NCBI GenBank assembly: GCA_045635745.1
Contig: JAZTWG010000053.1
Coordinates: forward strand, 8,883-72,882
Length of the DNA stretch: 64,000 nucleotides
Direction of reading: 5' to 3'
Source: Victivallaceae bacterium
Lineage (GTDB): Bacteria; Verrucomicrobiota; Lentisphaeria; Victivallales; Victivallaceae
In this document: piece after piece, positions 4,604-28,565 of the stretch
Layout of the letters: each line of letters starts with the position of its first letter
Numbering within the stretch: position 1 is the stretch's first letter
Notes under the pieces: generated by a model
The model's database searches: none
The model's input: only the letters and a program-made list of their open reading frames with translations
What the model was told of the DNA's origin: nothing
Made by a program: the position numbers and the translations under genes

Positions 4604-5533
4604 TTATATGAGTGCGGTCATTTCCGGCGGCGTGGGTGAACTGAAAGAGATTATTTCTCCGCTGACCGGATGAATGAAACTCAATTTGCAGCAATGCAGC
4701 GCCTGGCGTTCAAGTATCAGCTTTTTGCGGTCATCGCCGCTTAAAGTCCCCAGCGCAAAACGGCGGTAAAGCTGTTCATCGAGTCCGTAGAGTTTATCGC
4801 CTGCTACCGGGTAGCCCAAACCCTGCAAGGTAGCGCGGATCTGGTGCATTCTGCCGGTATGCAGCTTGGCGGCAAGCAGGGAAAAATTGCGGTTGCCGGC
4901 CAGTAATTCAAAAGATGTTTCCACGGCCATGGCGCCGGGCGTATTTTCCGCATCGGTAACAAATTTCAATTTTTTCTTTATAGTTGATGCTGCATCCGGC
5001 ACCAGAAAACCGCTGGCGTGGAGCTGCTGTGGAAAATCACCGTGCACCACTGCATGATAGCATTTTTCCATATCTGCAAGCGTTTTGCTCAATATTCCGG
5101 CAATTTTGCCGGTTTTGGCCGCGATCAGCAATCCGGAAGTTTCCCGGTCGAGCCGGTTGACAAAGTGTATTTTTTCGTAACCGTTTTCGGCCAGCAGGGC
5201 CCACAGCGTATGGTTGAAATATGGTCCGGCAGGATGCACCGGCAGATTGCCGGGCTTATCAATGACCAGCAAATATTCGTCTTCAAAAACTATACGGTAA
5301 GCACGGTTGACCGACGGTTCGGCCAGTTCGCCGGGGAAATATTCCAGCAGCATACCGGCCCGGAGCGGAGCTTGGGTAACTGTGCAGAATGCTCCATCGA
5401 GTGCGATTTTGCCGGATTGGATAATATCCTGCCACTCTTCAGAGGTGTGATAGGCAAATCGGCAGCTCAAATATTCCAACAGAGTCCGCTCGGCAGCCTG
5501 GGGCGGCAGTTTGGCCGCTACGCGCCGTTTCAT
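4604..5533 (-). CDS. RluA-family 23S/tRNA pseudouridine synthase with S4-like N-terminus
   Basis: Catalytic-Asp motif VNRLDRETSGLLIAAK and C-terminal HQIRATL motif. 4-nt overlap with the upstream GNAT gene. Confidence 0.85.
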   Translation of the reverse strand: MKRRVAAKLPPQAAERTLLEYLSCRFAYHTSEEWQDIIQSGKIALDGAFCTVTQAPLRAGMLLEYFPGELAEPSVNRAYRIVFEDEYLLVIDKPGNLPVHPAGPYFNHTLWALLAENGYEKIHFVNRLDRETSGLLIAAKTGKIAGILSKTLADMEKCYHAVVHGDFPQQLHASGFLVPDAASTIKKKLKFVTDAENTPGAMAVETSFELLAGNRNFSLLAAKLHTGRMHQIRATLQGLGYPVAGDKLYGLDEQLYRRFALGTLSGDDRKKLILERQALHCCKLSFIHPVSGEIISFSSPTPPEMTALI

Positions 5534-6009
5534 GCGTCAGAACCATGATAGATCACCGCGATCTCGTCACAACATTCGCGTTTGGGGCAATGAACGCAAT
5601 CGGCCCAGATCTTTTCGGGAAAGAGTTCTTTCTGCACAACTGTAAAGCCCAGCCGTTCAAAAAATCCCGGCTGTAATGTCAGGGCAAACAGGCGGTAAGA
5701 GCTGCGTTCAGCATCCAATCGGCTGATTGCTTTGGCGACCAGTTGCCGGCCGATGCCGGACTTCCGCAGTTCGGGCCGGATCGCCAGCGAACGCACTTCC
5801 AGCAGATCGTTGCCGAAATCCCGCACCGCCATGCAACCCAGCAGAGAATTTTCTGCATCAACTGCCACAGTAAAGTTTTTAAGATAAAAAGTTATATCCT
5901 CTTCACTGCGGTCGAGCAGAACGCCCTGCTGCGCGTATTCGTGCAGTAAGATATGTATATTGGATACGTCCTGCAGTTCAGCCGGACGCAAAATGACTTG
6001 ATCGCTCAT
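5530..6009 (-). CDS. GNAT-family N-acetyltransferase (short ArgA-like amino-acid N-acetyltransferase)
   Basis: Acetyl-CoA-binding segment RKSGIGRQLV. C-terminal Cys cluster WADCVHCPKRECCDEIAV, as I recall from short ArgA-like GNATs. Confidence 0.7.
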   Translation of the reverse strand: MSDQVILRPAELQDVSNIHILLHEYAQQGVLLDRSEEDITFYLKNFTVAVDAENSLLGCMAVRDFGNDLLEVRSLAIRPELRKSGIGRQLVAKAISRLDAERSSYRLFALTLQPGFFERLGFTVVQKELFPEKIWADCVHCPKRECCDEIAVIYHGSDA

Positions 6010-6021
6010 AAAATCAGAAAA

Positions 6022-7017
6022 TTACTTTTCCGCCGCAGCTTGGGCTTCCGCTTCCACCGCTTCGGCAACCTGACCGATTTTGCGGAATTTTTCGTAACGC
6101 TGGTCGCGCAGTTTGGCGGCGCTGAGTTTTTTCAGCTCATTGAGATTTTTTGTCAGCGATGCTTTCAGGAACTCGGCAGCTTTATCGTAATCAACGTGTG
6201 CTCCGCCCATGGGTTCTTCGATAACTTCATCGGCCACGCCCAGACGGGTCAGGTCGGCGGCGGTCAGTTTGAGAGCTTCTGCCGCACGGGGGGCAAAGGA
6301 GCGGTTCTTCCAGAGGATCGCCGCACAGCCTTCGGGCGTGATCACCGAATAGTAGGCATTTTCCAGCAGCAGGATCTTGTTGCCCACGCTGATGCCCAGA
6401 GCACCGCCGGAACCGCCTTCGCCGATAACCACGGCAATGACCGGCACGCTCAAGCCGAACATTTCGCGCAGGTTCACTGCAATAGCTTCGCCGATATGAC
6501 GCTCTTCCGAGGCCACGCCGGGGAATGCTCCGGGGGTGTCAATAAAAGTGATGATCGGCACACCTGCCCGGTCTGCCATATTCATCAACCGCATAGCCTT
6601 ACGGTAGCCTTCTGCGCTGGGCCAGCCGAAATTGCGGAACAGATTTTCCCGCATATCTCTGCCCTTCTGGGTGCCTACAACCATTACCGGTTTGCCGTTG
6701 AAACGGGCAAAACCGCCGACAATGGCTTTGTCGTCGGCAAAACGGCGGTCGCCGTGAAATTCCATAAAGTCGGTGAAAATACGCTTGATGTAATCCAGCG
6801 CGTAGGGGCGTTCGGGATGGCGGGCAAGCTGCACGCGCTGCCAGCTGGAAAGATTGGCGTAGGTGTTGCGGATCGTTTCATCCAGCTGTGCTTCCAGCAT
6901 TTTTACACAATTAGCCATGGCATCGCCGGGATGGGCTGTGCTGATCTCAGAAAGTTCACGGAGTTTGGTTCTGAGTTCTGCGATCGGTTTTTCAAAATCC
7001 AGATAAAATTCGGCCAT
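6022..7017 (-). CDS. accA: acetyl-CoA carboxylase carboxyltransferase subunit alpha
   Basis: MAEFYLDFEKPIAEL...RHPERPYALDYI...GGFARFNGKPVMVVG...IITFIDTPGAFPG...GEGGSGGALG are hallmark AccA segments. ATG at 7017 chosen over the upstream start in the track. Confidence 0.9.
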   Translation of the reverse strand: MAEFYLDFEKPIAELRTKLRELSEISTAHPGDAMANCVKMLEAQLDETIRNTYANLSSWQRVQLARHPERPYALDYIKRIFTDFMEFHGDRRFADDKAIVGGFARFNGKPVMVVGTQKGRDMRENLFRNFGWPSAEGYRKAMRLMNMADRAGVPIITFIDTPGAFPGVASEERHIGEAIAVNLREMFGLSVPVIAVVIGEGGSGGALGISVGNKILLLENAYYSVITPEGCAAILWKNRSFAPRAAEALKLTAADLTRLGVADEVIEEPMGGAHVDYDKAAEFLKASLTKNLNELKKLSAAKLRDQRYEKFRKIGQVAEAVEAEAQAAAEK

Positions 7018-7131
7018 TATTTGCTCGCTCCCAAGCTGTATATTATTATAAAAATTAAACTTATTATACAAATCAACTCATATAATATACATTTTTAGAC
7101 GGATTTTTGCAACAAAAACAGCAAAAAAAAG

Positions 7132-7159
7132 TTGCACAAGTGCAAAGCAGGGTTATATT
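7132..7159 (+). promoter_or_regulatory. putative sigma70-type promoter (TTGCAC-16-TATATT)
   Basis: -35 TTGCAC at 7132..7137, 16-nt spacer, -10 TATATT at 7154..7159, about 35 nt upstream of the LOG-family start. Confidence 0.35.
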
Positions 7160-7193
7160 TCCACATAACCATTGCCATGAAAGGAGTTATTTT

Positions 7194-7925
7194 ATGAGTG
7201 AAAAAATCCCCCCGAAAGTCAACCCTGCCAATCACCCGAGCCGGCAGAGCTTTGCTTCCAGTATAGAACATTCGCATTTTGATGCCTGGCGAGTCTTCCG
7301 GATCATGGCTGAATTTGTGGAAAGTTTTGAGGATATGGCCGATATTGAACGGCCGCTCGTAACCGTTTTCGGGTCGGCGCGTACTCCGGTGGATCACAAA
7401 TATTACCAGCAGGCCGAAACTTTGGGCCGGCTGCTGGCGGAAAACGGCTACGGTGTACTCACTGGCGGCGGCGGCGGTATTATGGAAGCCGCGCACAAAG
7501 GCGCTTATGACGCCGGCGGCGAAACGGTGGGGCTCAATATCGTTCTGCCGCATGAACAGAAGCCCAATCCGTTTCAGACCCGGTCGCTGAATTTCCGTTA
7601 TTTCTTTGTCCGCAAGGTAAATTTTCTCAAATATACAGTGGGGGTGTTCATCTTTCCCGGCGGCTTTGGCACGATGGATGAATTTTTTGAGTCAATAACT
7701 CTGGTGCAGACCAACAAAGTCAACCGTATACCGCTTATTCTGGTGGGCCGGGAGTTCTGGAGCGGTGCAGTCAAGTGGATCGAGGAAACGTTGGGCGGCT
7801 TCGGGTATATCTCGCCGGAAGATACCGAGCTTTATCACATTGTCGACAGCGCCGAAGAAGGTATGGAATATCTGAAAAACTGCCTGCGTTTCGGCGTAAC
7901 CGGAACAGTCAAGTACGATATTTAG
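7194..7925 (+). CDS. LOG-family / TIGR00730-type Rossmann-fold nucleotide-binding protein (cytokinin riboside 5'-monophosphate phosphoribohydrolase-like)
   Basis: GGGGGIMEAAHKGA and PGGFGTMDEFFE motifs. ATG at 7194 sits 7 nt after AAAGGAG, so the longer track ORF from 7107 is rejected. Confidence 0.85.
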   Translation: MSEKIPPKVNPANHPSRQSFASSIEHSHFDAWRVFRIMAEFVESFEDMADIERPLVTVFGSARTPVDHKYYQQAETLGRLLAENGYGVLTGGGGGIMEAAHKGAYDAGGETVGLNIVLPHEQKPNPFQTRSLNFRYFFVRKVNFLKYTVGVFIFPGGFGTMDEFFESITLVQTNKVNRIPLILVGREFWSGAVKWIEETLGGFGYISPEDTELYHIVDSAEEGMEYLKNCLRFGVTGTVKYDI

Positions 7926-7935
7926 TCCAATAAGT

Positions 7936-7963
7936 TTGACAAATACCGTTTTGGGTGTATATT
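7936..7963 (+). promoter_or_regulatory. putative sigma70-type promoter (TTGACA-16-TATATT) for the ferredoxin gene
   Basis: Consensus -35 TTGACA at 7936..7941, 16-nt spacer, -10 TATATT at 7958..7963. Confidence 0.45.
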
Positions 7964-8036
7964 AATCAACAGGTTGTTGGCCGGATACGCGATCCGGTTG
8001 ACAAGAACAACCTGAAATCCTTAAGGAGAAGTAGAA

Positions 8037-8207
8037 ATGGCTGCTAAAGTTGACAATTCGAACTGCGCCGGTTGCGGCGTCTGCGTCGCTGCCTGCCCGG
8101 TCGAAGCTATCGAAATCGTGGACGGCGTCGCCAAGATCGACGAAGAAAAATGCATCGAATGCGGTGCTTGCGTCGGCGAATGCCCCTGCGGCGCGATCTC
8201 TCTGTAA
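8037..8207 (+). CDS. 2x[4Fe-4S] dicluster ferredoxin, 56 aa
   Basis: Not in the ORF track (below 60 aa). Translation: MAAKVDNSNCAGCGVCVAACPVEAIEIVDGVAKIDEEKCIECGACVGECPCGAISL, with two CxxCxxCxxxCP motifs. AAGGAG RBS 7 nt upstream. Followed by a terminator. Confidence 0.8.
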   Translation: MAAKVDNSNCAGCGVCVAACPVEAIEIVDGVAKIDEEKCIECGACVGECPCGAISL

Positions 8208-8230
8208 TTTCAGAGCACGATCAAGTAAAA

Positions 8231-8258
8231 AACCCTGTCATAAACGGCAGGGTTTTTT
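8231..8258. terminator. intrinsic terminator between convergent ferredoxin and speE
   Basis: AACCCTG (8231..8237) pairs with CAGGGTT (8248..8254). The stem is flanked by an A-run upstream and TTTTTT downstream, so it could work on both strands. Confidence 0.55.
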
Positions 8259-8314
8259 ATTTTCAGCAAAATTGTATTGGCATCCGGCTTTCAGGCAAGA
8301 GCATTGGCCGGGTA

Positions 8315-9163
8315 TTATTTGAACCACGGCTTGGTGAATGCCGGCAGTACAAAACTGGAGCGGTGGATCTGCGGCGTATAATATTTCAGACTTTTTGCCA
8401 GTTGAGCATCGGGTTTGCGTAACGGTTTTTTTACCGGATTGGCTTTGGATGCCACGCATACGCCAATGGATCCGGCAGGGTAGGTGGGCACGGCGATGAA
8501 CGCATAGCCGTTGTATTTGAACAATTCCCGGGTAAAACCATACAGCCGCTTTACGATATCGGCGTACAGAAAGATGGATTCTGATTGCGAGGCCACCACG
8601 CCGTCATCTTTGAGTGCCGCATGTACCGACCGGTAGAACTCTTTGCCGAAAAGCACTTCGCCGGGGCCGATGGGGTCGGTGGAGTCCACAATGATCACAT
8701 CGTATTCATTTTTTTTCTGCCGGACAAACTCCAGTCCGTCGCCGATATGCAGATGCATTCTGGGATCATCAAATCCGCATGCGGTCGAGGGAATGAATTT
8801 TTTGCACAACTCCACCACCTGCCCGTCGATCTCGCATTGGTCGATATGTTTTACGCATTTGTGCCGCGCCACTTCGCGCGCCACGCCGCCATCGCCGCCG
8901 CCGATGATCAGCACTTTTTCCGGATTGGGGTGCACCATCATAGCCGGATGCACCAGCATTTCCTGATAGGCAAATTCGTCGAATTCGGTCAGCTGGACTA
9001 TCCCATCGAGCATCAGCATTCTGCCCAGTTCGGCTGTTTCGTAGATCTTGATGCGCTGGTAGCGGCTTTTGATATTGCAGAGGGTCCGGGTTATTTCAAT
9101 AGTGTTGCCGAACCCCTGGTCGATTTCGCTTACATAGCGCTTGAGCTTTTCTGTGTCATCCAT
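8315..9163 (-). CDS. speE: spermidine synthase (polyamine aminopropyltransferase)
   Basis: YQRIKIYE...LMLDG..Q..E.DEF.YQEML.H and VLIIGGGDGGVAREV...IIVDSTDPIGPG motifs. Confidence 0.9.
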   Translation of the reverse strand: MDDTEKLKRYVSEIDQGFGNTIEITRTLCNIKSRYQRIKIYETAELGRMLMLDGIVQLTEFDEFAYQEMLVHPAMMVHPNPEKVLIIGGGDGGVAREVARHKCVKHIDQCEIDGQVVELCKKFIPSTACGFDDPRMHLHIGDGLEFVRQKKNEYDVIIVDSTDPIGPGEVLFGKEFYRSVHAALKDDGVVASQSESIFLYADIVKRLYGFTRELFKYNGYAFIAVPTYPAGSIGVCVASKANPVKKPLRKPDAQLAKSLKYYTPQIHRSSFVLPAFTKPWFK

Positions 9164-9184: not shown

Positions 9185-10000
9185 TTATTGGCGCATCGCC
9201 ACCTGCAGGCGGTAATAACTGCCGTTCAAGGCATTGATCAATGTTTCAGAAATTTCCCGCGGGTCGAAAAAACGCCCCAGGAATATGTCGCAGTAGAGCG
9301 CTTTGCGATCCAGACTGTATCTGCCGGTGATGGTGCCCGCATCCAGTATTTGAGTAAAACGCAGTCCTTTGCCGCGTTCGGGATCGTGAAAATCGGCACA
9401 GCAGTTGGAACTGCATGGTTCGGTATGCAGAGCTTTGCTCAATTCATTGAGCACGCTGCAGATGTTGCCGGGAGTGAGATTTTCTTCCGGACAATCGTAT
9501 ACATCGATACTCGCAAGCATCCCCCAGGCGTTGCTTTTTTCGTAACGCATCTGCCAGCTCAAGACTCCATCGGCATTTTTGCCGGAGGATTTTTCATGCA
9601 ATACATTGCCATCCTGCCCGATGATACCGCGGCTCAGGGTGTTGCTTATGACCATGGAATGGGATTTGAGCCGGTCGCGGAGCGTTTCTGCCGCCAGATC
9701 AAAGTTGATCTGATCGCCGCAAGTGAAAATATCTACTGCGGCGTAATCATATTCCGGCCAGGCATGAACCGCAAAGTGGGATTCGCAAATGACCACGATG
9801 CCGCTGACTCCCTGCGGATCGAAAGCATGAAAACTTGATTCCAGAACAGTTGCCCCGCTGATTTTTGCAGATTCTACAAAGATATTCTGCATCAGTTGCG
9901 AGTCGGCAAGGGTCTGTGCATCGCAGTCGTAGTACTCGATCGTCAAATGACGCCCCAGAGCAAGGGCCTGAAAAGATATCGGTTGTTTCTGCGGAGTCAT
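9185..10000 (-). CDS. speD: S-adenosylmethionine decarboxylase proenzyme (Bacillus-type SpeD/SpeH fold) fused to a second, degenerate copy of the fold
   Basis: N-terminal half GRHLTIEYYDCD...PQGVSGIVVICESHFAVHAWPEYDYAAVDIFTCGD matches class-1 AdoMetDC, including the Glu-Ser self-processing site. Residues ~150-271 repeat the pattern (IDVYDCPEE...YCDIFLGRFFD) without the ES site. It lies directly upstream of speE. Confidence 0.75.
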   Translation of the reverse strand: MTPQKQPISFQALALGRHLTIEYYDCDAQTLADSQLMQNIFVESAKISGATVLESSFHAFDPQGVSGIVVICESHFAVHAWPEYDYAAVDIFTCGDQINFDLAAETLRDRLKSHSMVISNTLSRGIIGQDGNVLHEKSSGKNADGVLSWQMRYEKSNAWGMLASIDVYDCPEENLTPGNICSVLNELSKALHTEPCSSNCCADFHDPERGKGLRFTQILDAGTITGRYSLDRKALYCDIFLGRFFDPREISETLINALNGSYYRLQVAMRQ

Positions 10001-18022: not shown

Positions 18023-18098
18023 GCCAGCTTAGCTCAGTTGGTAGAGCAGTTGACTTGTAATCACCAGGTCGCCGGTTCGACTCCGGCAGCTGGCTCCA
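18023..18098 (+). tRNA. tRNA-Thr (anticodon UGU), CCA encoded
   Basis: Hand-folded cloverleaf. Acceptor stem GCCAGCT/AGCTGGC. D arm GCTC-AGTTGGTA-GAGC. Anticodon arm GTTGA-CTTGTAA-TCACC (one mismatch). T arm GCCGG-TTCGACT-CCGGC. Discriminator T plus CCA, followed by a T9 run. Confidence 0.9.
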
Positions 18099-18665: not shown

Positions 18666-21323
18666 ATGAGTGAAATTGAACATCACGATTTTCCGATCAA
18701 TATCGAAGACATCATGCATACTGCCTATCTGCAGTATTCTTTGAGTGTCAACGTCGGCCGCGCCATTCCCGATGTGCGCGACGGGCTTAAGCCCGTAAAC
18801 CGGCGAATTCTTTACGCTATGAAAAAACTTGGTCTCACCAAGTCTCACGGCTATACCAAAAGCGCCAAGGTAGTCGGTGAAGTGATCGGTAACTATCACC
18901 CCCACGGCGACAGTTCTGTTTACGATGCCATGGTGCGTCTGGCGCAGCCGTTTTCGCTGCGTATGTGCATGGTCGATGGCCACGGTAACTTCGGCAGTAT
19001 CGACGGCGACCCCGCGGCTGCCTACCGTTACACCGAGTGCCGTCTGGAACGTCTGGCCGAAGAAATGCTCGTGGATCTGGAAAAAGATACTGTGGATATG
19101 ATGCCCACCTTTGACGAATCCAATGTGGAGCCCACCGTACTGCCTGCCCGTTTCCCCCAGCTGTTGGTCAATGGCACCACCGGTATCGGGGTGGGTATGG
19201 CTACGAGCATTCCCACTCACAACTTGGCCGAAGTTATCAATGCCACGGTTGCGTTGCTGGATAATCCCAAAGCTTCCATCGAAGAACTTATGCGCCATCT
19301 GCCCGGGCCGGACTTCCCGACCGGAGCGATCATCCGCGGTATCTCTTCGATCCGCCAGTTCTATCAGACCGGTCGCGGTTCGATCAAGATGCGTGCCCGT
19401 GCCGAAATTATTGAAGATAACGGCAAAGAGCAGATCCTGATCACCGAAATACCCTATGCGGTCAACAAGGCCACTTTGATCGAAAGTATGGCCAATCTGG
19501 TTCGCGATAAAAAAGTGCAGGGCATTACCGGTCTGCGCGACGAATCCAGTATGAAAGCCGGGGTGCGTATCGTTGTGGATGTCAAACGTGGAGTCATGGC
19601 CAGCGTGATCCTTAATCAGCTTTTTGCCCACACCCAGCTGGAAACGACTTTCCCCTGCACCATGCTGGTGGTCGATCACAACCGCCCGCGGGTGATGAAT
19701 CTGGCACAGGTATTGCAGGCATATCTCGATCACCGCATGGAAGTGCTTATCCGAAAAACCAAGTTCGATTTGGGCAAAGCGCAGGCCCGCGCTCACATTG
19801 TGGAAGGCTTTCTCAAGGCGCTGGATATTATCGACGAAGTTGTCAATACCATCCGTGAAAGCAAGACCAAGCCCGATGCCAACGAAGCTTTGCAGAGCAA
19901 ATTCGGTTTCTCCGAACTGCAGGCGGCGGCGATTCTGGAAATGCGTCTGCATCAACTTACCGGACTGGCGCGTGAAGAGCTGGATGCGGAATTTGCCGAG
20001 CTTTGTGCCAATATCAAATATTTCAACGAATTGCTTGCCAGCCGCGAAATGCGTTTGGGCGTGATTCGCGCCGATTTGATCGAAGTTCGCGATAAATACG
20101 CCGATCCGCGCCGCACCGAGATCACTACCGCCGATGGTGATTTGAATATTGCCGACCTTATTGAGCGGCACAGTTGCGTTATTACGGTTTCCAACACCGG
20201 TTATATCAAGCGGGTGCCGGCGGCGACTTATCAGACCCAGCATCGCGGCGGCAAAGGTATTATTGCCATGAAGACAAAAGAAGAGGATTATGTGGAACAC
20301 CTCTTCAATGCCGACAGCCACGATCTGATCTTCTTCTTTACCGACCGCGGTTTCATGTACTGGCTGAATGTGTACGAAATCCCCGAAGCCTCGCGCAGTT
20401 CCAACGGCAAAGCCATTGTGAACATGATCAAGATCGAACCGGGCGAAAAGATCCGTGCCATGCTTACGGTCAAGCCGGAAGAGTTGAGTGAAGAAAACAA
20501 ATTCATGCTCATGTGTACACGCCGCGGCTTTATCAAAAAGATGCCGCTCAATCTCTTCAAAAATTTGCGACGTGTCGGTTTGCGCGCGCTGGTCATTGAA
20601 GATGATGACGACCTTATCAGCGCTTCGATCTGTGAAAATGGCAACGAAGTGCTGCTTTCCACTGCCAATGGTATGGCGTGCCGCTTTACGTTGAGTGATG
20701 AAGAACTCCGGCCCATGGGCAGAACCGCCCGCGGTGTAACGGGTATGCGGTTCAAGATCGAAGGCGATTATCTGGTGGCGATGACGGTTGTCCGCGAAAA
20801 GCTGGACGATGAAGAAGTGCTGGATGAAGATGCCGAAGTTGTGGAAGTCGAAAGCGCCGATGATGGCGAAATCATCGAAAATGCTTCCGGTCCGCAGGTG
20901 CTGGTAGTTTCCGATGGCGGTATGGGTAAGCGTTCGCTGGTCTCCACCTATCGCAAGACCCGTCGCGGTGCCAAGGGGGTGGTCAGCATCAAACTGCGTG
21001 AAAACGAAAAGGTGGTCAATACCATTCAAATCCAGAATGGCGATGAACTTCTGATCACTACCGAACGCGGTCAGCTCACTCGTATTCCGCTCGATGAGAT
21101 CCGTACCGTCGGCCGTGCCAGCAAAGGGGTCAAGATCATGAACCTCAACGATGGCGACCGGATCACGGGAGCCGTTGCTTTGATCGAAGTCAAAGGCGAA
21201 GAAAAAGCCGAAGATGCCGAAGTGACGGAAGCTGTTACTGCTGAAACAAACACAAATGACGGAATTGTGACGGATTCTCCCACCGGAGTGACGGGTGAAG
21301 ACGATACAACTTCCGAGGCATAA
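18666..21323 (+). CDS. gyrA: DNA gyrase subunit A
   Basis: YLQYSLSVNVGRAIPDVRDGLKPVNRRILYAM, HPHGDSSVYDAMVRLAQ (QRDR) and the active-site AAYRYTE region. C-terminal beta-pinwheel repeats and an acidic tail. Confidence 0.95.
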   Translation: MSEIEHHDFPINIEDIMHTAYLQYSLSVNVGRAIPDVRDGLKPVNRRILYAMKKLGLTKSHGYTKSAKVVGEVIGNYHPHGDSSVYDAMVRLAQPFSLRMCMVDGHGNFGSIDGDPAAAYRYTECRLERLAEEMLVDLEKDTVDMMPTFDESNVEPTVLPARFPQLLVNGTTGIGVGMATSIPTHNLAEVINATVALLDNPKASIEELMRHLPGPDFPTGAIIRGISSIRQFYQTGRGSIKMRARAEIIEDNGKEQILITEIPYAVNKATLIESMANLVRDKKVQGITGLRDESSMKAGVRIVVDVKRGVMASVILNQLFAHTQLETTFPCTMLVVDHNRPRVMNLAQVLQAYLDHRMEVLIRKTKFDLGKAQARAHIVEGFLKALDIIDEVVNTIRESKTKPDANEALQSKFGFSELQAAAILEMRLHQLTGLAREELDAEFAELCANIKYFNELLASREMRLGVIRADLIEVRDKYADPRRTEITTADGDLNIADLIERHSCVITVSNTGYIKRVPAATYQTQHRGGKGIIAMKTKEEDYVEHLFNADSHDLIFFFTDRGFMYWLNVYEIPEASRSSNGKAIVNMIKIEPGEKIRAMLTVKPEELSEENKFMLMCTRRGFIKKMPLNLFKNLRRVGLRALVIEDDDDLISASICENGNEVLLSTANGMACRFTLSDEELRPMGRTARGVTGMRFKIEGDYLVAMTVVREKLDDEEVLDEDAEVVEVESADDGEIIENASGPQVLVVSDGGMGKRSLVSTYRKTRRGAKGVVSIKLRENEKVVNTIQIQNGDELLITTERGQLTRIPLDEIRTVGRASKGVKIMNLNDGDRITGAVALIEVKGEEKAEDAEVTEAVTAETNTNDGIVTDSPTGVTGEDDTTSEA

Positions 21324-21326
21324 AAA

Positions 21327-22187
21327 ATGACAGAGCAGGGCGTTTTTTCGTGGCAGGAGCTGTTGGCTCCGCTGATGGGTAAACGCCCGCTTGTTGCCGG
21401 AATAGTCAATGTCACGCCGGACAGTTTTTCAGACGGAAAAGGTTCTGTTGATACTGCCGAACGCGTGGCATTTGCTTTGCAGCTGTTGGATGAAGGGGCG
21501 GATTTGCTGGATATCGGAGCTGAATCCACCCGCCCCGGGGCCAGAGAAGTGCCTCCGGAAGAAGAGTGGGCGCGGCTTGAAAGCGTCTTGAAAAATATAC
21601 TTTCCCGGCGCCCCGATACGGTAATAAGCATTGATACGCGCCACAGTACAACTGCCGTCAGAGCTCTGCAGGCAGGAGCAAAGATCATCAACGATGTCAG
21701 CGGTCTGCAGTTCGATGAAAACATGGCAGGAGTCATAGCCGGATATCAAGCCGGATGTATACTCACCCATTCGGCCGGGATCCCCGAAGTAATGCAGGAA
21801 AAAGGTACTGTAATAGCTGCTGATACGCTGAAAACGGTACAGGATGGTCTGCATGGAATATTGTCGGCTGCGCTTTCTGCGGGGATAAAATCAGACCTGA
21901 TCATGCTCGATGCGGGGATCGGTTTCGGCAAAAGCTGTGCCGGAAATTATGAACTTTTGCGTAATGCCGGTTGGCTGGAAAAACACTTTGATTTACCATT
22001 TTGCTGGGGCGTATCGCGGAAAGGCCTGCTGAAATGCGAACCCGATACTATGGCAAAACGCATTGCCGGTTCGCTGGCGCTGGCGGTGAAACTTGCTGAA
22101 CAGAGGGTGTCGCTTTTGCGGGTGCACGATGTGGCAATGACCCGGGCTGCGCTTGCTGCTGCCGGAAAAATGGAAGCAGCTTTATGA
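21327..22187 (+). CDS. folP: dihydropteroate synthase
   Basis: VNVTPDSFSDG, DIGAESTRPGA, SIDT, INDVSG and GFGK motifs. Starts 3 nt after the gyrA stop. Confidence 0.9.
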   Translation: MTEQGVFSWQELLAPLMGKRPLVAGIVNVTPDSFSDGKGSVDTAERVAFALQLLDEGADLLDIGAESTRPGAREVPPEEEWARLESVLKNILSRRPDTVISIDTRHSTTAVRALQAGAKIINDVSGLQFDENMAGVIAGYQAGCILTHSAGIPEVMQEKGTVIAADTLKTVQDGLHGILSAALSAGIKSDLIMLDAGIGFGKSCAGNYELLRNAGWLEKHFDLPFCWGVSRKGLLKCEPDTMAKRIAGSLALAVKLAEQRVSLLRVHDVAMTRAALAAAGKMEAAL

Positions 22188-22612
22188 GTCTGTTTGCCCG
22201 CGCCCGTGCCAGACATTTGAAATTGGGTTGCCGCGGCGAAGCGCTGGCGGTAAAACTTTTCCGGTGCCGTAATTGTGTGATATTGGCACGCAACTGGCGC
22301 AACAGTTCCGCACATGATGGCGCCGGTGAATTGGATATTGTTCTGCTTGATGGCGAAACATTGGTTTTTGCTGAAGTCAAGACTCGGCGCAAGCTTGATA
22401 ATTATCTGCCGGGCGCCAATCTGAGCGAGAGTCAGAAAAAACGCATCCGGCGCGGGGCAAGGGCTTATTGCCGGCAGTTCAATATTGCTGAAGAGCTGGA
22501 AAAGCGTTTTGATCTTGTGGAAATTATCCATGATGGAAAACGACTGCGCGATATAGCTTTGCACGAGAATTACATGCCATTTTTCCCGTCTGAATTCTTG
22601 ACACATAATTGA
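22184..22612 (+). CDS. yraN: YraN-family (UPF0102) endonuclease-like protein
   Basis: GE..A..L......ILARNWR....GELDIV......LVFAEVKTR pattern. ATGA overlap with the folP stop. Confidence 0.8.
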   Translation: MSLFARARARHLKLGCRGEALAVKLFRCRNCVILARNWRNSSAHDGAGELDIVLLDGETLVFAEVKTRRKLDNYLPGANLSESQKKRIRRGARAYCRQFNIAEELEKRFDLVEIIHDGKRLRDIALHENYMPFFPSEFLTHN

Positions 22613-22625
22613 TCGATGTTATATT
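22598..22625 (+). promoter_or_regulatory. putative sigma70-type promoter (TTGACA-16-TATATT) of the riboswitch-led operon
   Basis: -35 TTGACA at 22598..22603 (inside the yraN 3' end), 16-nt spacer, -10 TATATT at 22620..22625. Same architecture as the ferredoxin promoter. Confidence 0.45.
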
Positions 22626-22681
22626 AATGTTATAAGGCAGTATTGAACGCCCGCTTACGGGGAGTATTGCCAATAAAATAT

Positions 22682-22794
22682 TATCCGGACAACAGGTGAA
22701 TCCAGTGAAAATCTGGAACTGTCGTGCAACCGTGAGCTGTTGAAAAAGGATTTATAGCTTTTTCTGAAACAGCGAGCCGGATCCCTGCCGGATA
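22682..22794 (+). promoter_or_regulatory. candidate cobalamin (B12) riboswitch aptamer, compact form
   Basis: Closing helix TATCCGG (22682..22688) pairs with CCGGATA (22788..22794). Core AGTGAAAATCTGGAACTGTCGTGCAACCGTGAGC (22704..22737) resembles the conserved GGTGAnAATCC...GC.G..CCCGCaACnGTaAG core. GAGCCGGATCCCTGCC (22774..22789) resembles the B12 box AGYCMGGAGACCKGCC. Inner helix CAACAG/CTGTTG. Downstream genes encode a BtuFCD-type importer. Matched by eye against remembered consensus and the btuB and Thermoanaerobacter examples. No covariance model was run. Confidence 0.65.
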
Positions 22795-22831
22795 CAATTG
22801 TGCACGTAACACAAAAGGAAACATTCTTACG

Positions 22832-23656
22832 ATGAAGACTTTGCAGAAAGTCTGTCGGGGGACGCTACTGCTGTCCCGGAAGAAGGGGTTCACGCTTATT
22901 GAACTCCTGGTTGTAATTGCGATCATTGCAATTTTAGCGGCGATGCTGCTGCCGGCACTCGCTGCCGCCAGAGCTGCGGGATGGAGTGCCGCTTGTACGA
23001 GCAATCTCAAGCAGCTCGGGTTGGCAAACATACTTTACAGCGAAGCATATAATGGCTTGCTGGTGCCGTATGCTGTGGATATGAATGACGCAAACAAGAT
23101 GCGTTGGCATGGCTTAAGCGAAAAATCAAGTAATTATGGGGATGCGGCGGATTACGATCCGGCTAAAGGGCCGCTGGCAGAGTATCTGGGCGGTACCGGA
23201 CTGGTAAATCATTGTCAGGCATTGCTTGTAGATAAAAAAGATCAGGGGTTTGAGCGCGGCTGCGGCGGTTACGGGATCAATACACTTATCGGTAAACTTC
23301 GTCCGGATGGCTGGGATAGGGCTGATTATGCTGCCGGTTTTCCACTGCATAAGATAGATGATCCGGTAAAAACGATAATGTTTGCCGATTCGGCAATTAC
23401 TGTACAAAGCAGCGGAAATGCTGGCGATGGACATTACGGTTACAGTTCAAGCGTGGAACCGCCAGATCCGTATATGCCGATGCCAACAATGCATTTCAGG
23501 CATAACAACTTGGCTAACAGTGTGTTGTGTGATGGGCATGTGGAAGGTTTGCCGATGATCGAAAGTGGCGATGATAAATATAAGGAACTGTTTTTGGGGT
23601 ATCCGTGCACAAAAGATGATGATGGCAGGTATGAGCGGTTTCATCCGCAATATTAA
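22832..23656 (+). CDS. prepilin-type N-terminal cleavage/methylation protein with C-terminal H-X9-DG motif (DUF1559-like pseudopilin-like protein)
   Basis: Leader [19 protein letters not shown]|[24 protein letters not shown] (canonical G/F site and Glu+5). C-terminal [18 protein letters not shown] equals H-X9-DG. Confidence 0.85.
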
Positions 23657-23681
23657 GCAGTTAAGAGAACATTTCAGTAAT

Positions 23682-24521
23682 ATGCAAGAGAGTAAAATGA
23701 TTTTCCACAATATAACTCGATATGTTGATGCCAAAACTTTCTTTGGCGCAGAAAATCTTTTTACTCTGATCGAGCTTTTGCTGGTGATTGCCATTATTGC
23801 CATACTTGCGGCGATGCTGCTGCCGGCGTTGGCTTCGGCGCGGGCTTCGGCATGGAGTGCAAACTGCACGAGCAACCTTAAACAGCTTGGTTACGCCAAT
23901 ATCATGTATGCCGACAACAATCGCGGCCTGCTTGTGCCTTACGCTGTGGATATGAATACGACCAACACCCACCGCTGGCACGGCACCAGCGGGAGCTCCA
24001 GCAGCAGCGGCAGCGCCGGATATAATTACAGCAAAGGTCCGCTGGCAGAATATCTGGGCGAAAGCGGAACCGTCAACCATTGTCAGGCATTGATCGTGCC
24101 GGATGATTTCAACGGCTTTGAAAAGGGCTGCGGCGGCTACGGGATCAATTCACTTATCGGCATGATAAAGCCAGATTTATGGGACTTTTCGGCGGGATTT
24201 CCACTGCACAGTGTGGATGACCCCGCCAATACCATTATGTTTGCCGATTCGGCGGCGCCTTGCCGGAAAGATGGCAACTGGGCTGATTTGAGCAGTATGG
24301 ATTTTATCGGATACAGTTCAAGTGTGGAAGCTCCGGCATCATATATGGCGCCCACCATGCATTTCCGCCACAACCGGAAAGCCAATGCCGTATTTTGCGA
24401 TGGCCATGTGGATTCGATGAGTATGGGCAACTCCAACAGCGGACACGAAAAAGAGCTGCTTGCTTTTCCCTGTAAAGATAATGAAGAAGATAAAAACAAA
24501 TACTTTCATCCGTTAAAGTAA
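23682..24521 (+). CDS. prepilin-like H-X9-DG protein, tandem paralog of the preceding gene
   Basis: ...[31 protein letters not shown] and [18 protein letters not shown]. By eye roughly half of positions are identical to the upstream paralog. Start ATG 23682 (or 23697); the track start at 23565 would overlap the upstream gene and is rejected. Confidence 0.8.
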
Positions 24522-25340
24522 ATGAAAATTTTCTGTAAAATATTTATAGCTCTGCTGGCCGGTTTTTCAGCAAATTTGTTTTCCGGCGAGCTGAAAGTTG
24601 TGTCGCTGTCTCCGGCTCTGACCGAAATGATCTGTTATCTGGGCGGCGAAAAATACCTCGTCGGCAGATGTTCGGCATGCGATTACCCGGCAAGGGTCAA
24701 GGCGCTGCCGGTGGCGGGAAAATTCGGGATGCCTGAAATCGAAAAAATCGCTGCCATGAAACCCGACTGGGTGATTGGCAATTCTTTTGCCAATACTTCA
24801 GCGGTAAAAAAACTCCGGCAGCTGGGGATCGAAACTGATCTGGCTCAAATCTCCACTCCGGAAGATTATATTTACTGGCTGCAGCTTATCGGCAAAAAAT
24901 TAAATCTGGAAACACAGGCTCAAGCCGCCGGAAAGGCGTTCCGGGAAGATGAAAAATTTTTGCAAACGCTTGAACCGTTGAAACTTAAAGTGCTGTGGGT
25001 GGTCAATGCCAAGCCGTTGATCGTCTGTTCCCTGGGAAGTCTGCCCGACAGAGTACTGAAAATGATCAAGGTCGGAAATGCCGCCGGCAGTGTAAATAAA
25101 GAGTATTTCCGCTGCTCGGCAGAGTGGCTGGCAAAAGCCGAAATCGATCTGATAATCTGGAGCGTGCCCGGCACTCCGCAGAAAAGCGGCGGATTTCTGA
25201 AAAAAATATCGGCAGTAAAAAATGGCCGGGTCATTCTGTTGGAAATGGATGACCCCATTTGCCGCCCGGGCCCCCGCTTTATGCCGGCGGTCAGGCAATT
25301 ACGCGAAAAAGTTGAACTTTTTTATAAGGCAAAAAAATGA
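24522..25340 (+). CDS. btuF: BtuF-like periplasmic cobalamin/siderophore-family substrate-binding protein
   Basis: LKVVSLSPALTEMICYLGGEKYLVGRCSACDYP...EKIAAMKPDWVIG closely parallels the BtuF N-lobe (..SPANTE...S.YSDYP...E.IVALKPDLVI). Signal peptide present. The ATG immediately follows the stop of the upstream gene. Confidence 0.8.
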   Translation: MKIFCKIFIALLAGFSANLFSGELKVVSLSPALTEMICYLGGEKYLVGRCSACDYPARVKALPVAGKFGMPEIEKIAAMKPDWVIGNSFANTSAVKKLRQLGIETDLAQISTPEDYIYWLQLIGKKLNLETQAQAAGKAFREDEKFLQTLEPLKLKVLWVVNAKPLIVCSLGSLPDRVLKMIKVGNAAGSVNKEYFRCSAEWLAKAEIDLIIWSVPGTPQKSGGFLKKISAVKNGRVILLEMDDPICRPGPRFMPAVRQLREKVELFYKAKK

Positions 25341-26287
25341 AACGCTCTCTGTTGTACGAAATCATTCTGCCATTGACCGCTTTGCTGGCAACGGCACTCT
25401 TGAGCCTGATTTGCGGTAAAGCGCAGATCAACTGGCAGGATTTTATGCACGACCCGGTTTTTGAACTGCGCGTGGTTCGGGTGCTGGGAGCGGTGGTTAT
25501 TGGTGCTTCGCTGGCTTTGTCGGGCATGGTGCTGCAGGCGGTGCTGCGTAATGTGCTGGCAGAACCCTTTACGCTGGGTATTTCCGGCGGTGCGGGCGTG
25601 GGGGCGGCATTGGCGATCGTATTCGATTTGCAGTTATTGTGGTTTCTGGCGGTGCCGGCAATGGCGTGGGCCGGAGCGCTGCTTACGCTGATATTGGTAT
25701 TGCTGACTGCCGGTAACCGGAGTGCGGAAAATCTGCTGTTGAGCGGGGTGATTTGCGGTACTGCGGCTTCGGGGGTATTGATGTATATTGTAAGTATTGC
25801 CAATAAAGAGGATCTGGCATCCATATCGTGGTGGATGCTTGGCGATCTGCAGAGTATGGATGCGACACTGTTGGGTTATTGCGGAAGTTTTACTTTTGTT
25901 CTGCTGGTGATTTTCCGGTTGTTTGCGCGCGAACTCAATGCTCTCTCGCTGGGCGGCGAAATGGCCTGGAGCATGGGGGTGAATATAAAGTTTTTCACTT
26001 ATTTATTTATTATAACAGCAAGTTTGCTGGCCGCTCAAACTGTGGCTTTGGCCGGGATAACCGCCTTTGCCGGTTTGATCGTACCGCATCTGGTACGGAT
26101 GTGTTACGGCAGCGACCATCAGCGCACGGTGATACCCACGGCGTTGTGGGGGGGCGTTTTTTTAACGGTATGCGACTGGCTTTCGCGCATTGTGCATCCG
26201 GTGCATGAGCTGCCGATCGGAGTGCTGACTGCTGCGATCGGCGGAGCGCTGTTTATATACATACTCAACCGGAGAAAAATATCATGA
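25337..26287 (+). CDS. btuC: FecCD-family ABC permease (BtuC-like)
   Basis: About 9-10 hydrophobic segments, LAEPFTLGISGGAGVGAAL, and a C-terminal IGVLTAAIGGALFIYIL pattern of the FecCD family. ATGA overlap with btuF. Confidence 0.85.
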   Translation: MKRSLLYEIILPLTALLATALLSLICGKAQINWQDFMHDPVFELRVVRVLGAVVIGASLALSGMVLQAVLRNVLAEPFTLGISGGAGVGAALAIVFDLQLLWFLAVPAMAWAGALLTLILVLLTAGNRSAENLLLSGVICGTAASGVLMYIVSIANKEDLASISWWMLGDLQSMDATLLGYCGSFTFVLLVIFRLFARELNALSLGGEMAWSMGVNIKFFTYLFIITASLLAAQTVALAGITAFAGLIVPHLVRMCYGSDHQRTVIPTALWGGVFLTVCDWLSRIVHPVHELPIGVLTAAIGGALFIYILNRRKIS

Positions 26288-27045
26288 AAATAACTCTGGA
26301 TAAACTTTCTGCCGGTTATAATGGGAAAAGGCTCTTTTCGGATATTTCTGCCGAGTTACAGCCCGGAAAACCGCATTTTCTGGCGGGCCCCAACGGTGGT
26401 GGAAAAAGTACGCTGCTCAAACTTATGTGCAACTATCTGCAGCCGGTTTCCGGAACAGTTCTTTTAGATGACAAACCCATAGGTAAATACTCTTTTGCCG
26501 AACGTGCGCGCCGCTTGGGCGTGGTTTGGCAGTCGGTCAGACCCGGGTTGGATTTCAGCGTGCTGGATATGGCGGCGGTTATTGCTTCGGCCCGATTCCC
26601 GCGTCTGGGGAAACTTCCGGCGGGCGATAAAGAGCTTATTTATTCAAGTCTGGAGCGCTTCGGATTGCTGGATAAGGCTCAACACCTTTTCAGCACACTT
26701 TCCGGCGGCGAAGCGCAACGGCTGCTGCTGGCAGGCATGATGGTGCTGGCACCGGATGTAATGCTGCTGGATGAACCGACTTCGGCGCTGGATCCGGCAT
26801 GGCGGAACCGGGTATTTGAGTTTCTGGAAGAATACGCATGCGATCATACAGTATTGATCGTTACGCATGATCTGGAACTTATCGGCCGTGCCGGCGGAAC
26901 GCTGTGGCTGCTGGATGATGGTGGTAATTTTATCAGCGGGCAGGCAGAAGATCTTTTGAACGGAGAAACTTTAAGCCGCGTTTATGCCAGCAAAGCTTCT
27001 GTAATAAAAACTCCCGGCAATCCGACAAGGATTTATTTTGATTGA
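26284..27045 (+). CDS. btuD: ABC transporter ATP-binding protein (BtuD/FepC-like)
   Basis: Walker A GPNGGGKSTLLK, signature LSGGEAQR, Walker B VMLLDEPTSALD. ATGA overlap with btuC. Confidence 0.85.
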   Translation: MKITLDKLSAGYNGKRLFSDISAELQPGKPHFLAGPNGGGKSTLLKLMCNYLQPVSGTVLLDDKPIGKYSFAERARRLGVVWQSVRPGLDFSVLDMAAVIASARFPRLGKLPAGDKELIYSSLERFGLLDKAQHLFSTLSGGEAQRLLLAGMMVLAPDVMLLDEPTSALDPAWRNRVFEFLEEYACDHTVLIVTHDLELIGRAGGTLWLLDDGGNFISGQAEDLLNGETLSRVYASKASVIKTPGNPTRIYFD

Positions 27046-27064: not shown

Positions 27065-28423
27065 TCACTTGCCGATGCAGAAACGCGAAAATATTTCGTC
27101 CAGCAGATCCGGCTCCACCGTTTCGCCCACGATCTTGCCGACTTCCACCAATGCCAGTCGCAAATTGGCCGAGGCCAGTTCCCAGTTGCCGGCGGTGATT
27201 TCGTTTTCAGCCGGTTCAAGCATGCTTTCAGCGGTTTGCAACAAAGCCAGATGGCGGGCATTTACCGCTGCGGGCGTGTCGGCACCGTTGCCATCGCCCT
27301 GCCAGACAGTTTGTTCAAAAATATCCAGCAAAGCATCGAGATTTTTTCCGGTTTGAGCCGAAATTTTTACCGTTTTAACTTCCGCTATTTCCGGCAGAAC
27401 TCTTTCCGGTGCCAGATCCAGCTTGTTCCAGACGGCAATGGTCTGTTGGAAATTGCCGGAGAGATTCTGTTTGAATTCCGCTGCTTCCAGCTCAAGATCT
27501 TCTGCCGAGGCATCCAGCAGATAAAATACGATTTGCGACTGCTTGATCGCTGCTTTGGCCCGTTCGATCCCCAAAGCTTCGATTTCGTCATCGGAGTCGC
27601 GCAAGCCGGCGGTATCGGTTATTTCCACAGGTATATTGCGTAAAACGGCACTTTCCGCCAGTGTGTCGCGGGTGGTTCCGGGTATGGCACTTACGATCGC
27701 GCGGTCAATGCCCAGCAGGGCGTTGAGCAGACTGGATTTGCCTGCATTGGGTTTACCGGCAAGTGTTATGCGCACGCCCTGCCGCAAAACCGCTCCGGCA
27801 TGGGCCGAGGCAATCAAATGCTGCAGCGAACTCCGGGCGGAGGAGAGTTTTTCCAGCAATATGGAGTTGTCGTCAAAGTCCAGTTCCTCGTCGGGAAAAT
27901 CCAGCCTTGATTCACAATCCGATGCCAGCAAAAGCAGTTGTTCGCGTATATCGTTTACGGTGTTGGAAAGCGACCCTTCCAACTGCCGCAGCGCCAGATT
28001 GAGTGTGGCATCGCTGGAAGCTGTTATCACATCGCCCACCGCCTCGGCCTGCGCCAGATCGAGTTTGCCATTGATAAAAGCACGCATGGTGAATTCGCCG
28101 GGTTCGGCAGAACGCACATTGCTCTGACGCAAAACCGCATCCAGTGTACGGCGTATGACAGCTGCACCGCCATGGCAATGCAGTTCCACAACATCTTCTC
28201 CGGTGTAGCTGTGCGGACCGGGCATATAGACCGCCAGCGCCGGCTCTCCCGGATCTCCGATCAGACCGTAGAGCATTACACGCGCATTGCTTTTGCACAA
28301 AGATCTTCTGCCGCGCCAGACATTTTGCGCCACGCTCAAAGCGTTATCGCCGGAAATGCGCACAATATTGATCGCACCGCCGGGGGCGGTGGCAACTGCG
28401 GCAATGGTATCGACTGTATTCAT
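27065..28423 (-). CDS. mnmE: tRNA modification GTPase MnmE (TrmE)
   Basis: [22 protein letters not shown]-domain [14 protein letters not shown]...DTAGLR, and the C-terminal FCIGK motif. ATG at 28423. Confidence 0.9.
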
Positions 28424-28565
28424 AAAAAATCCCAACAGAAAAATTAGTTTTCCCGGTAATATAACGCAAAATTGTTATCTTGCAAGGTTTTTTTATGGCA
28501 AAAGTAAGTTAAGAGGTTATATTATAACGTATTTATTTAAACACATAATAGAAAAGGATTCTATC

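Follow-up and report, generated by a model that had tools for sequence, protein, structure and literature searches.

The stretch of DNA considered here, hereafter the window, consists of 64,000 nucleotides (nt) of a Victivallaceae bacterium. Our subject within it is a block of five genes which encode two pilin-like proteins, psp1 and psp2, and then a BtuFCD-type importer, as used for vitamin B12 (cobalamin). Ahead of all five lies a cobalamin riboswitch. The main finding is that riboswitch and pilin-like genes go together, i.e., that such aptamers recur upstream of psp relatives across phyla, including where importer genes do not follow. The pilin-like proteins very probably serve corrinoid acquisition as dedicated extracytoplasmic components, with production confined to times of B12 scarcity, as they possess an aptamer of their own even when alone, as their partners are btuFCD, cobO, or DUF4465 genes, and as neither the psp1 structural model nor family searches reveal enzyme-like features. 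The best explanation of the block as a whole, which we consider reasonably probable, is that of a B12-repressed operon for pilin-like, extracytoplasmic corrinoid capture or delivery, along with a filament mechanism.

The riboswitch and its recurrence ahead of pilin-like genes

Cobalamin riboswitches control genes for corrinoid uptake, salvage, and synthesis as well as genes for B12-independent isozymes. In the window, the Rfam model RF00174 is matched over its full length (model positions 1-189) with 31.0 bits and E=5e-6 in a 701-nt search, the gathering score of this family being 31.5 bits. A whole-window Rfam scan at the gathering threshold consequently reports no riboswitch, as 31.0 bits falls below 31.5, and the match appears only under an E-value threshold. 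Both the aptamer core, GGUGAAUCCAGUGAAAAUCUGGAACUGUCGUGCAAC, and the 3' box, GAGCCGGAUCCCUGCCGG, are found, with a P1 stem (UAUCCGG/CCGGAUA) closing the fold, and the leader folds better than do shuffled versions (z=-3.0). That no terminator hairpin or U-tract is seen between the aptamer and the psp1 ATG suggests control at the level of translation as the more likely mode. The downstream genes, judging from sequence, would be repressed by B12.

A further covariance model, R1, describes the trimmed aptamer core and was built from 18 Rfam-verified aptamers, taken from non-Lentisphaerota loci only. It matches the window at 22689-22791 with 39.7 bits (E=2.3e-9, with 840 kb searched). Across 70 distinct aptamers, that of the window included, 93.7% of cells are paired, versus 71.2% in shuffles, and compensatory changes on both sides are seen in 22 of 27 base pairs. 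The covariation score for these same 70 is 0.437, versus 0.120 when shuffled (with none of 500 reaching the observed value) and at most 0.071 when slid, all of which are statistics of an aptamer alignment that was fitted to the model. A fold generated with RNAalifold from five MAFFT-aligned aptamers was wrong, and was not used for the model. The riboswitch-like leader proposed in an earlier, sequence-only reading of this DNA thus is upheld, i.e., by the full-length RF00174 match along with R1 and covariation.

Homologous aptamers are present at the equivalent position in relatives of this locus (loci being designated here by L and a number). In close relatives these score 28-39 bits and so, like that of the window, lie just below the cut-offs of both RF00174 and RF01482. 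Standard gathering-threshold annotation therefore misses this riboswitch class in the Lentisphaerota clade. Aptamers of distant relatives are above threshold, with 50.6, 53.6, and 51.6 bits for L004b, L054, and L046, respectively, in terms of RF01482, and 44.7-53.9 bits for L025-L031 in terms of RF00174. The Lentisphaerota aptamers are also short, at roughly 125-170 nt (the window; leaders of L007, L008, L009, L016, and L021).

The psp1 homologs group together clearly, under source names of Lentisphaerae or Victivallales, and scanning one genome per species for the clade's own motifs provided 80 loci. Over the 840 kb, R1 gives 72 matches, located in the window and in 69 of 87 relative loci, every one of them on the strand of the pilin-like gene and upstream of it. 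Of the 18 loci lacking a match, 14 are cut off too near the gene for an aptamer to be judged; the aptamer is seen in 69 of the 73 relatives with enough upstream DNA. Support from Rfam exists in 39 of the aptamer-bearing loci. The link as a whole is found in about 75 loci and in Lentisphaerota, Planctomycetota, Hydrogenedentota, and Omnitrophota. As a negative control, 80 loci taken from metagenomes on the basis of generic patterns of pilin N-termini were searched, 70 of which have at least 300 nt and 25 at least 2.7 kb of DNA upstream. R1 matched two of the 80 (L160 and L137), both of which are genuine cassettes. Loci L036-L087, which are of lower identity and mostly from Planctomycetota, were dropped as negative controls, as they proved to carry this same B12 cassette. 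The adjacency of riboswitch and pseudopilin, whose recurrence elsewhere the sequence-only reading had called for, is therefore found in most relatives that can be assessed, and independently of btuFCD.

The arrangements in which this adjacency is seen differ. In Lentisphaerota the aptamer lies 0-200 nt upstream of the pilin-like gene, which occurs with btuFCD in 11 loci or else alone in unrelated neighbourhoods. Loci L001-L003, L006, and L007 read riboswitch-psp(-psp)-btuF-btuC(-btuD). In L001-L003 a single pilin-like gene is followed by a gene in which BtuF-like and BtuC-like portions are fused (539-558 amino acids, aa; Peripla_BP_2 plus FecCD; L001 6898-8517). Locus L004 has two adjacent pilin-like genes, each with an adenosylcobalamin-type aptamer (5833-5968 and 6998-7129), and is without btuFCD; in L005 there is just one such gene, with an aptamer and without a transporter; and in L088, from Hydrogenedentota, a 95-bit aptamer precedes a lone psp. 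On account of these loci and of the stand-alone units, the riboswitch link is specific to the pilin-like gene rather than being a by-product of btuFCD. Even as a lone unit, the pilin-like gene of this clade retains an aptamer.

Locus L089, from Omnitrophota, reads riboswitch (5004-5224), cobO, a second but weak aptamer (5868-6003), psp, and btuFCD, with a match to a domain of group II introns (RF00029; 46 bits, which is over its cut-off) at 9534-9617, just after btuD. In L090 the riboswitch is followed by two genes and then psp. Genes btuFCD lie directly 3' of psp, with codons abutting or overlapping, in the window, in other Lentisphaerota, in L069 (Sedimentisphaerales), and in L089. A BtuB-type receptor was seen in none of the operons examined. 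Typical cassettes also are found in metagenome-assembled genomes labelled 'Vicinamibacteraceae' (L038) and 'Clostridiaceae' (L046), from phyla in which H-X9-DG proteins are unexpected, and these assignments probably reflect mis-binning rather than true breadth.

In Planctomycetota, a cobalamin riboswitch of 70-105 bits is located about 2.0-2.6 kb upstream of psp and on the same strand in 13 of 14 loci scanned. The layout is riboswitch-X-Y-psp, i.e., with two genes between aptamer and psp, of which X is variable across cassettes, with psp and Y constant. About 20 loci have as X a DUF4465 protein with PEP-CTERM (Pfam E=5e-55 and 3e-56), and about 14 have some other anchored protein there. DUF4465 is the B12-binding beta-jellyroll of BtuJ1/2 and BtuH of Bacteroides, with binding established experimentally, including for divergent members (PMC13398666, PMC8941943). 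Among the neighbours of DUF4465 which a 2026 study lists are TonB, ATP-binding cassette (ABC), and beta-propeller proteins, and no pilin-like ones.

Gene Y always is immediately upstream of psp, often with its stop codon overlapping the psp start. Its family consists of 1,946 clusters with neither a Pfam domain nor a name, the proteins displaying a signal peptide and a C-terminal dockerin (PEP-CTERM in L160). That dockerin was the only thing which a profile search of PDB found, and the structural model of Y, with a predicted local distance difference test (pLDDT) value of 50.1, was too poor for structure searching. The variants of Y are weakly alike (BLASTP E=0.002). Y is a second orphan family that is tied to B12. 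All of these elements are combined in L069, which possesses cobO, riboswitch, X, Y, psp, btuF, btuC, and btuD.

Of the two control loci matched by R1, L160 is riboswitch-X-Y-psp, and L137 consists of a riboswitch, a canonical full-length DUF1559 protein (PF07596, 160.9 bits, best stretch at profile positions 1-183), and then DUF4465 with PEP-CTERM. The L137-type orthogroup is tight (120 matches at 61-99% identity), and riboswitch-DUF1559-DUF4465 is found in five of five loci, the aptamers of the four further members scoring 73-89 bits. The cultured Paludisphaera borealis is among its carriers. In P. borealis (L171, CP019082.1) a gene for a TolC/OEP-family outer-membrane protein is found on the same strand 200 nt past DUF4465 (6932-8551), which is a possible outer-membrane partner of this cassette. 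In two other operons a DUF6580 protein of about 190 aa follows DUF4465 (L172 7697-8287 and L174 6679-7251). This protein, for which NCBIfam gave no match, might be the inner-membrane transporter of the cassette.

The pilin-like H-X9-DG family, taken broadly, has 437,489 clusters at E<=1e-3. Only particular clades of it are linked to B12, with generic members not riboswitch-linked. The sequence-only reading, which had anticipated a functional handle on the entire DUF1559 family, was overstated to that extent, the link holding for a divergent clade and one canonical orthogroup.

The operon of the window and its proteins

Features of the operon are collected in Table 1, along with examples of gene Y from other loci.

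Table 1. Features of the riboswitch-led operon (window positions) and, in the last row, of gene Y (positions within other loci); a slash marks the boundary following leader residue -1.
Feature	Position	Strand	Description
Promoter-like site, sigma-70 type	22598-22625	+	TTGACA, 16 nt, TATATT; TG precedes -10
Cobalamin riboswitch aptamer, short variant with minimal peripheral domain	22669-22806	+	RF00174, model R1
Expression platform	22807-22831	+	purine-rich ribosome-binding stretch AAAAGGAAAC before psp1 ATG
psp1, pilin-like, 274 aa	22832-23656	+	leader ...KKG/FTLIELL, long N-terminal helix, globular head of about 210 aa
psp2, psp1 paralog, 279 aa	23682-24521	+	leader ...AENL/FTLIELL (no Gly at -1)
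btuF-like periplasmic binding protein, cluster A type	24522-25340	+	Peripla_BP_2; Sec-type signal peptide
btuC-like permease, FecCD family	25337-26287	+	PF01032
btuD-like ABC ATPase	26284-27045	+	PF00005
Gene Y, examples	L057 3658-4842; L043 3730-4836; L069 3708-4853; about 35 other loci

The promoter-like site has 11 of 12 consensus matches and is the top site of a 5-kb scan, which is a consensus match only. Between psp1 and psp2 there is a gap of 25 nt, the TAA of psp2 directly abuts the btuF ATG, and both the btuF/btuC and btuC/btuD junctions are ATGA overlaps. Inside the block, promoter-like and terminator-like matches are found only at chance level. Upstream are gyrA, folP, and a UPF0102 gene, and the 3' neighbour, mnmE (27065-28435), is convergent to the operon. 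Every structural detail of the earlier reading is present in the sequence, i.e., its gene order, gaps, overlaps, convergent next gene, and lack of a hairpin terminator inside the block. The same applies to its statement that the locus is without a TonB-dependent, BtuB-type receptor: none is found among the open reading frames of the window of at least 578 aa, a statement limited to the window, with those frames encoding instead GyrA, leucyl-tRNA synthetase, a Band-7 protein, a P-type ATPase, and GreA-like, metallophosphatase, and SurA-like proteins. A tRNA gene (18023-18095, 65.9 bits) precedes gyrA-folP-UPF0102 (18666-22612), and as this upstream synteny is kept in relatives L001 and L007, the riboswitch operon holds a fixed chromosomal position in the lineage.

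The paralogs psp1 and psp2 are 58% identical as aligned. Both have pilin features, i.e., an FTLIE motif with Glu5, which is present also in 100% of 82 relatives, and a helix of about 50 residues. The N-terminus of psp1 matches N_methyl PF07963 with 38.2 bits (cut-off 21.2) and TIGR02532 with 35.6 (cut-off 16.3), and that of psp2 matches TIGR02532 with 19.1 bits and, at 17.5, is under the cut-off of PF07963. DUF1559 (PF07596, cut-off 23.3) is matched by psp1 with 26.3 bits over only profile positions 2-33 of 268 and by psp2 with 21.2 bits, under cut-off, over positions 2-46. That is, about 32-47 N-terminal residues are covered and the model is not matched over the whole domain. TIGR04294 (H-X9-DG) gives 17.7 bits for psp2, versus a cut-off of 19, and no match for psp1, despite which the literal motif, H224-x9-D234-G235, is present and 99-100% conserved.

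The clade of 82 sequences has, additionally, a head signature: R91-W92-x-G94, C128, F140-E141-x-x-C144-G-G-Y-G-x-N150, F184-x-D186, H221-F-R-H224, and D234-G-H236, or in short form RWHG / FE.GCGGYG.N. Its residues are carried by psp2 as well. Psp1 and psp2 thus are divergent relatives of the DUF1559/H-X9-DG family rather than typical members. The DUF1559-like assignment of the sequence-only reading comes with caveats, in that the DUF1559 model matches N-terminally only and TIGR04294 is under cut-off, the literal H-x9-DG motif notwithstanding.

As modelled, with confidence, by AlphaFold2 (pLDDT 91.5, predicted template modelling score 0.84), psp1 consists of a helix at 22-72 followed by a beta-rich head. 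Searching PDB with this model using Foldseek yielded nothing at E<1, B12-binding proteins included, and searching PDB sequences with the psp profile led no further than the N-terminal helices of pilins. There is no homology between the head and DUF4465 (hhalign probability 0.7%, with no DUF4465 Pfam match), nor do the pilin-like proteins match solute-binding protein (SBP) families, other than an N-terminal stretch of 'SBP_bac_10', which is DUF1559. Five proteins of 650-980 aa (P0249, P0281, P0282, P0310, and P0354) have a Y-like start with the FTLIE motif internal. These are apparent Y-pilin fusions or instead run-through gene calls and, if real, their helix is not an N-terminal leader.

At position -1, just preceding the pilin-type helix, psp1 has Gly (KKG/F) and psp2 has Leu. 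Gly is found there in 1 of 31 Lentisphaerota relatives, and Ala or Gly in 43 of 43 from Planctomycetota. Unrelated, bystander pilin-like genes of Lentisphaerota likewise are without Gly(-1), the residues seen in this phylum, riboswitch-linked or not, being Arg, Ser, Asn, His, Ile, Phe, and others (e.g., L004 1567-2286 on the minus strand, L006 9526-10326 also on the minus strand, and window 23682-24521). This suggests that Lentisphaerota have an unusual prepilin peptidase specificity or that cleavage does not occur. As a mark of non-pilins, non-Gly(-1) was dismissed, since it is seen in those bystander genes as well; the prepilin peptidases of Lentisphaerota may just have a specificity that differs.

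The importer proteins together have the composition expected, i.e., Peripla_BP_2, FecCD, and ABC ATPase proteins encoded by overlapping genes. None of the three reaches equivalog-level identity to BtuF, BtuC, or BtuD. The btuF-like protein matches PF01497 with 70.2 bits and the NCBIfam BtuF, IsdE, and TroA-like models all with about 44-47 bits, BtuF (NF002894) specifically with 44.2 versus a cut-off of 234 and IsdE also far under its equivalog cut-off. The btuC-like protein matches PF01032 with 243.5 bits, its best NCBIfam model being BtuC (NF003001) with 200.5 versus a cut-off of 334. With the btuD-like protein, PF00005 is matched with 93 bits and the best NCBIfam models are heme, Fe-dicitrate, and corrinoid ATPases, all under their cut-offs, with BtuD (NF002981) at 105.9 bits versus a cut-off of 281 and heme and iron-siderophore models comparable. 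B12 would be the presumptive substrate of this transporter because a cobalamin riboswitch precedes the operon.

Proposed capture or delivery versus other explanations

We picture the block as a single B12-repressed operon of promoter, cobalamin riboswitch, psp1, psp2, and BtuFCD-type importer. The psp proteins would assemble, as its subunits, into a type IV filament or a pseudopilus, with the N-terminal helix anchored in the inner membrane. Their novel head would bind corrinoid, or instead a corrinoid-loaded binder such as DUF4465 or Y, and the cargo would be brought through the envelope to BtuF, which then would feed BtuCD. The pilin route in this manner would stand in for the TonB-dependent BtuB and surface lipoproteins of other diderms. 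Taken on its own, this mechanism, of a filament subunit whose head carries corrinoid or loaded binder to BtuF, is put forward tentatively, with the location of the psp proteins, their binding of a ligand or partner, their assembly into filaments, and passage across the outer membrane all presumed. Capture or delivery had been the suggestion also of the sequence-only reading. Its riboswitch proved real, and the idea gains weight because psp in Planctomycetota shares operons with DUF4465, for which binding of B12 is proven; what went too far was, as noted, its extension to a whole family.

Several observations weigh against the above picture. The aptamer of the window is 0.5 bit below the curated threshold of Rfam, and four relatives, L010, L034, L035 (a weak nhmmer match only), and L045, have no aptamer that R1 detects. 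The head resembles no solved structure (Foldseek E>1), going by its model, nor does it resemble DUF4465. Most Lentisphaerota members, psp2 included, are without the canonical Gly(-1) that prepilin peptidases need, and may never be cleaved or assembled. Lastly, genes for pilus or type II secretion system (T2SS) assembly are not consistently nearby, the sole one seen being that of a T2SS-E ATPase in L089, at a distance of 4 kb.

The latter two points would fit also with a rather different role, the main rival though one that we consider unlikely, which is that psp proteins form no filament and are instead membrane-anchored, periplasmic hand-over proteins, much as in the archaeal bindosome. The helix then would be an inner-membrane anchor only, and the head would either concentrate corrinoid in the periplasm or dock BtuF at the transporter, with no outer-membrane role. 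Consistent with hand-over are psp stops that abut or nearly abut btuF starts in three phyla, Y-psp fusion calls, which would place the helix internally, and the precedent, from Archaea, of ABC binding proteins that carry class III signal peptides (PMC3047682). A simple anchor, however, would not need a pilin N-terminus that, Glu5 included, is strictly conserved throughout. The Ala or Gly seen at -1 in all of the Planctomycetota members, along with the sharing of the non-Gly trait by Lentisphaerota bystanders, also speaks against this role, as does the head lacking an SBP fold. In addition, PEP-CTERM or dockerin on Planctomycetota X and Y suggests action that is at the cell surface, not periplasmic.

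Psp might instead serve as an adaptor for secretion or display, that is, as a specialised type II secretion pseudopilin which recruits B12-binding proteins (DUF4465, Y, or others) so that they are exported or positioned at the surface, while not itself handling the vitamin. Both Planctomycetota arrangements do pair a pilin-like gene with a secreted B12-binding protein, and minor pseudopilins of T2SSs contact cargo. PEP-CTERM proteins, however, are sorted by exosortase rather than by T2SSs; X is variable where psp and Y are constant; and many Lentisphaerota and Hydrogenedentota units are alone or with btuFCD only, i.e., have no candidate cargo gene. Such an adaptor we view as quite unlikely. 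Less plausible by far, to the point of being highly improbable, is regulation by B12 without a role in uptake, as with an envelope or adhesion protein for use under B12 limitation, or a B12-independent substitute. Stand-alone riboswitch-psp units, with no adjoining transporter, would be accommodated by this, and cobalamin riboswitches govern, as noted, isozymes of that sort too. Against it are operons shared with btuFCD, cobO, and DUF4465 in four phyla, and the lack of enzyme-like features already mentioned. Finally, chance is scarcely credible, i.e., that the riboswitch serves btuFCD and the pilin-like genes merely were inserted between. The window alone cannot separate such insertion from co-regulation. 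Hitch-hiking nonetheless is refuted by the comparative data: aptamers directly precede orthologs that are without btuFCD, and overall they are seen in 69/73 assessable relatives versus 2/80 controls.

Returning to capture and delivery by pilin-like proteins, B12 is a keystone shared micronutrient, and here a pilin-type component is found under a B12 riboswitch in at least four phyla, often beside a B12-binding domain. Were capture or delivery true, then corrinoids would have a new entry step, and a bacterial pilin-like protein would for the first time have a role with a small-molecule nutrient. A first testable function thereby becomes available for members of the DUF1559/H-X9-DG family, which to our knowledge is among the largest paralog expansions of Planctomycetota and had no assigned function before. 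The same cassettes flag a large, unannotated partner family, Y. Experiments are feasible now, as cassette carriers that have been cultured include Paludisphaera borealis PX4 (CP019082.1, about 3.62 Mb; riboswitch-DUF1559-DUF4465), for the canonical DUF1559 clade, and Lentisphaerota strain zth2 (CP071032.1, about 0.82 Mb; riboswitch-psp), for the clade of the window. A bolder version, which we consider unlikely and which would amount to a categorically new route of uptake, is that members of the Planctomycetes-Verrucomicrobia-Chlamydiae group and their neighbours import B12 across the outer envelope with a machine of type IV filaments in place of a TonB-dependent receptor. A B12-specific pilin would capture the vitamin, with DUF4465 and Y where present, and would retract or relay it to BtuF-BtuCD. 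If that is true, then the hugely expanded DUF1559/H-X9-DG family would represent a range of uptake pilins, each specific to its cargo, with each clade dedicated to another nutrient.

Relation to known systems

All characterised routes of B12 uptake by diderms begin, so far as we are aware, at a TonB-dependent BtuB, with Bacteroides adding surface lipoproteins. Riboswitch-controlled BtuFCD/BtuB operons, as of E. coli, Salmonella, and many Firmicutes, have in common with the operon described here a leader aptamer, a type II ABC importer, and overlapping genes. They differ in that here the first two cistrons are pilin-like, there is no BtuB or other TonB-dependent receptor in the locus, and all three transporter proteins are under the BtuF, BtuC, and BtuD equivalog cut-offs. 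The Bacteroides relay, in which BtuG, BtuH, and BtuJ1/2 (the latter being DUF4465) lead to BtuB, likewise has extracytoplasmic accessories in riboswitch loci (PMC8941943, PMC10404256, PMC13398666, PMC13616437). Here, by contrast, the accessory is a pilin-like protein rather than a lipoprotein and has a head that is related neither to DUF4465 nor to any solved fold, DUF4465 where found is anchored by PEP-CTERM and not by lipid, and the operons examined have no BtuB or BtuG.

A pilin-type N-terminus serving an ABC importer is found also with the archaeal bindosome, i.e., with the sugar-binding proteins of Sulfolobus, which have class III signal peptides (PMC3047682). These archaeal proteins, however, possess true SBP folds and are the only binding protein of their transporter, whereas in the window there is a separate BtuF-like SBP, the head of psp has no SBP fold (one long helix plus a beta-rich head), and the host is bacterial and diderm.

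Uptake systems based on type IV filaments include the pseudopili of competence, with DNA-binding minor pilins (ComGC, ComP), and a related design is seen in the pseudopilins of T2SSs, GspG-K. Shared with these are the N-terminal methylation-type motif, Glu5, the long hydrophobic helix, and the concept of cargo passing through the envelope. Differences are that only about 45 N-terminal residues match, with equivalog models far under their cut-offs, that the cargo here would be a vitamin, and that no assembly genes are linked. With DUF1559/H-X9-DG proteins (PF07596, TIGR04294; Planctomycetota, Verrucomicrobiota, Lentisphaerota) psp1 and psp2 share the N-terminus, a Cys following the helix, and a C-terminal H-x9-DG in its literal form, under the TIGR04294 cut-off as it is, while the clade of the window has a head signature of its own and is covered by the Pfam model over about 32-47 residues. 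In full-text searches we found no paper that connects B12 with either pilin-like or DUF1559 proteins. Conceptually, what comes closest are the archaeal bindosome and the cargo-binding pilins of DNA uptake, and the system of the window is a member of neither.

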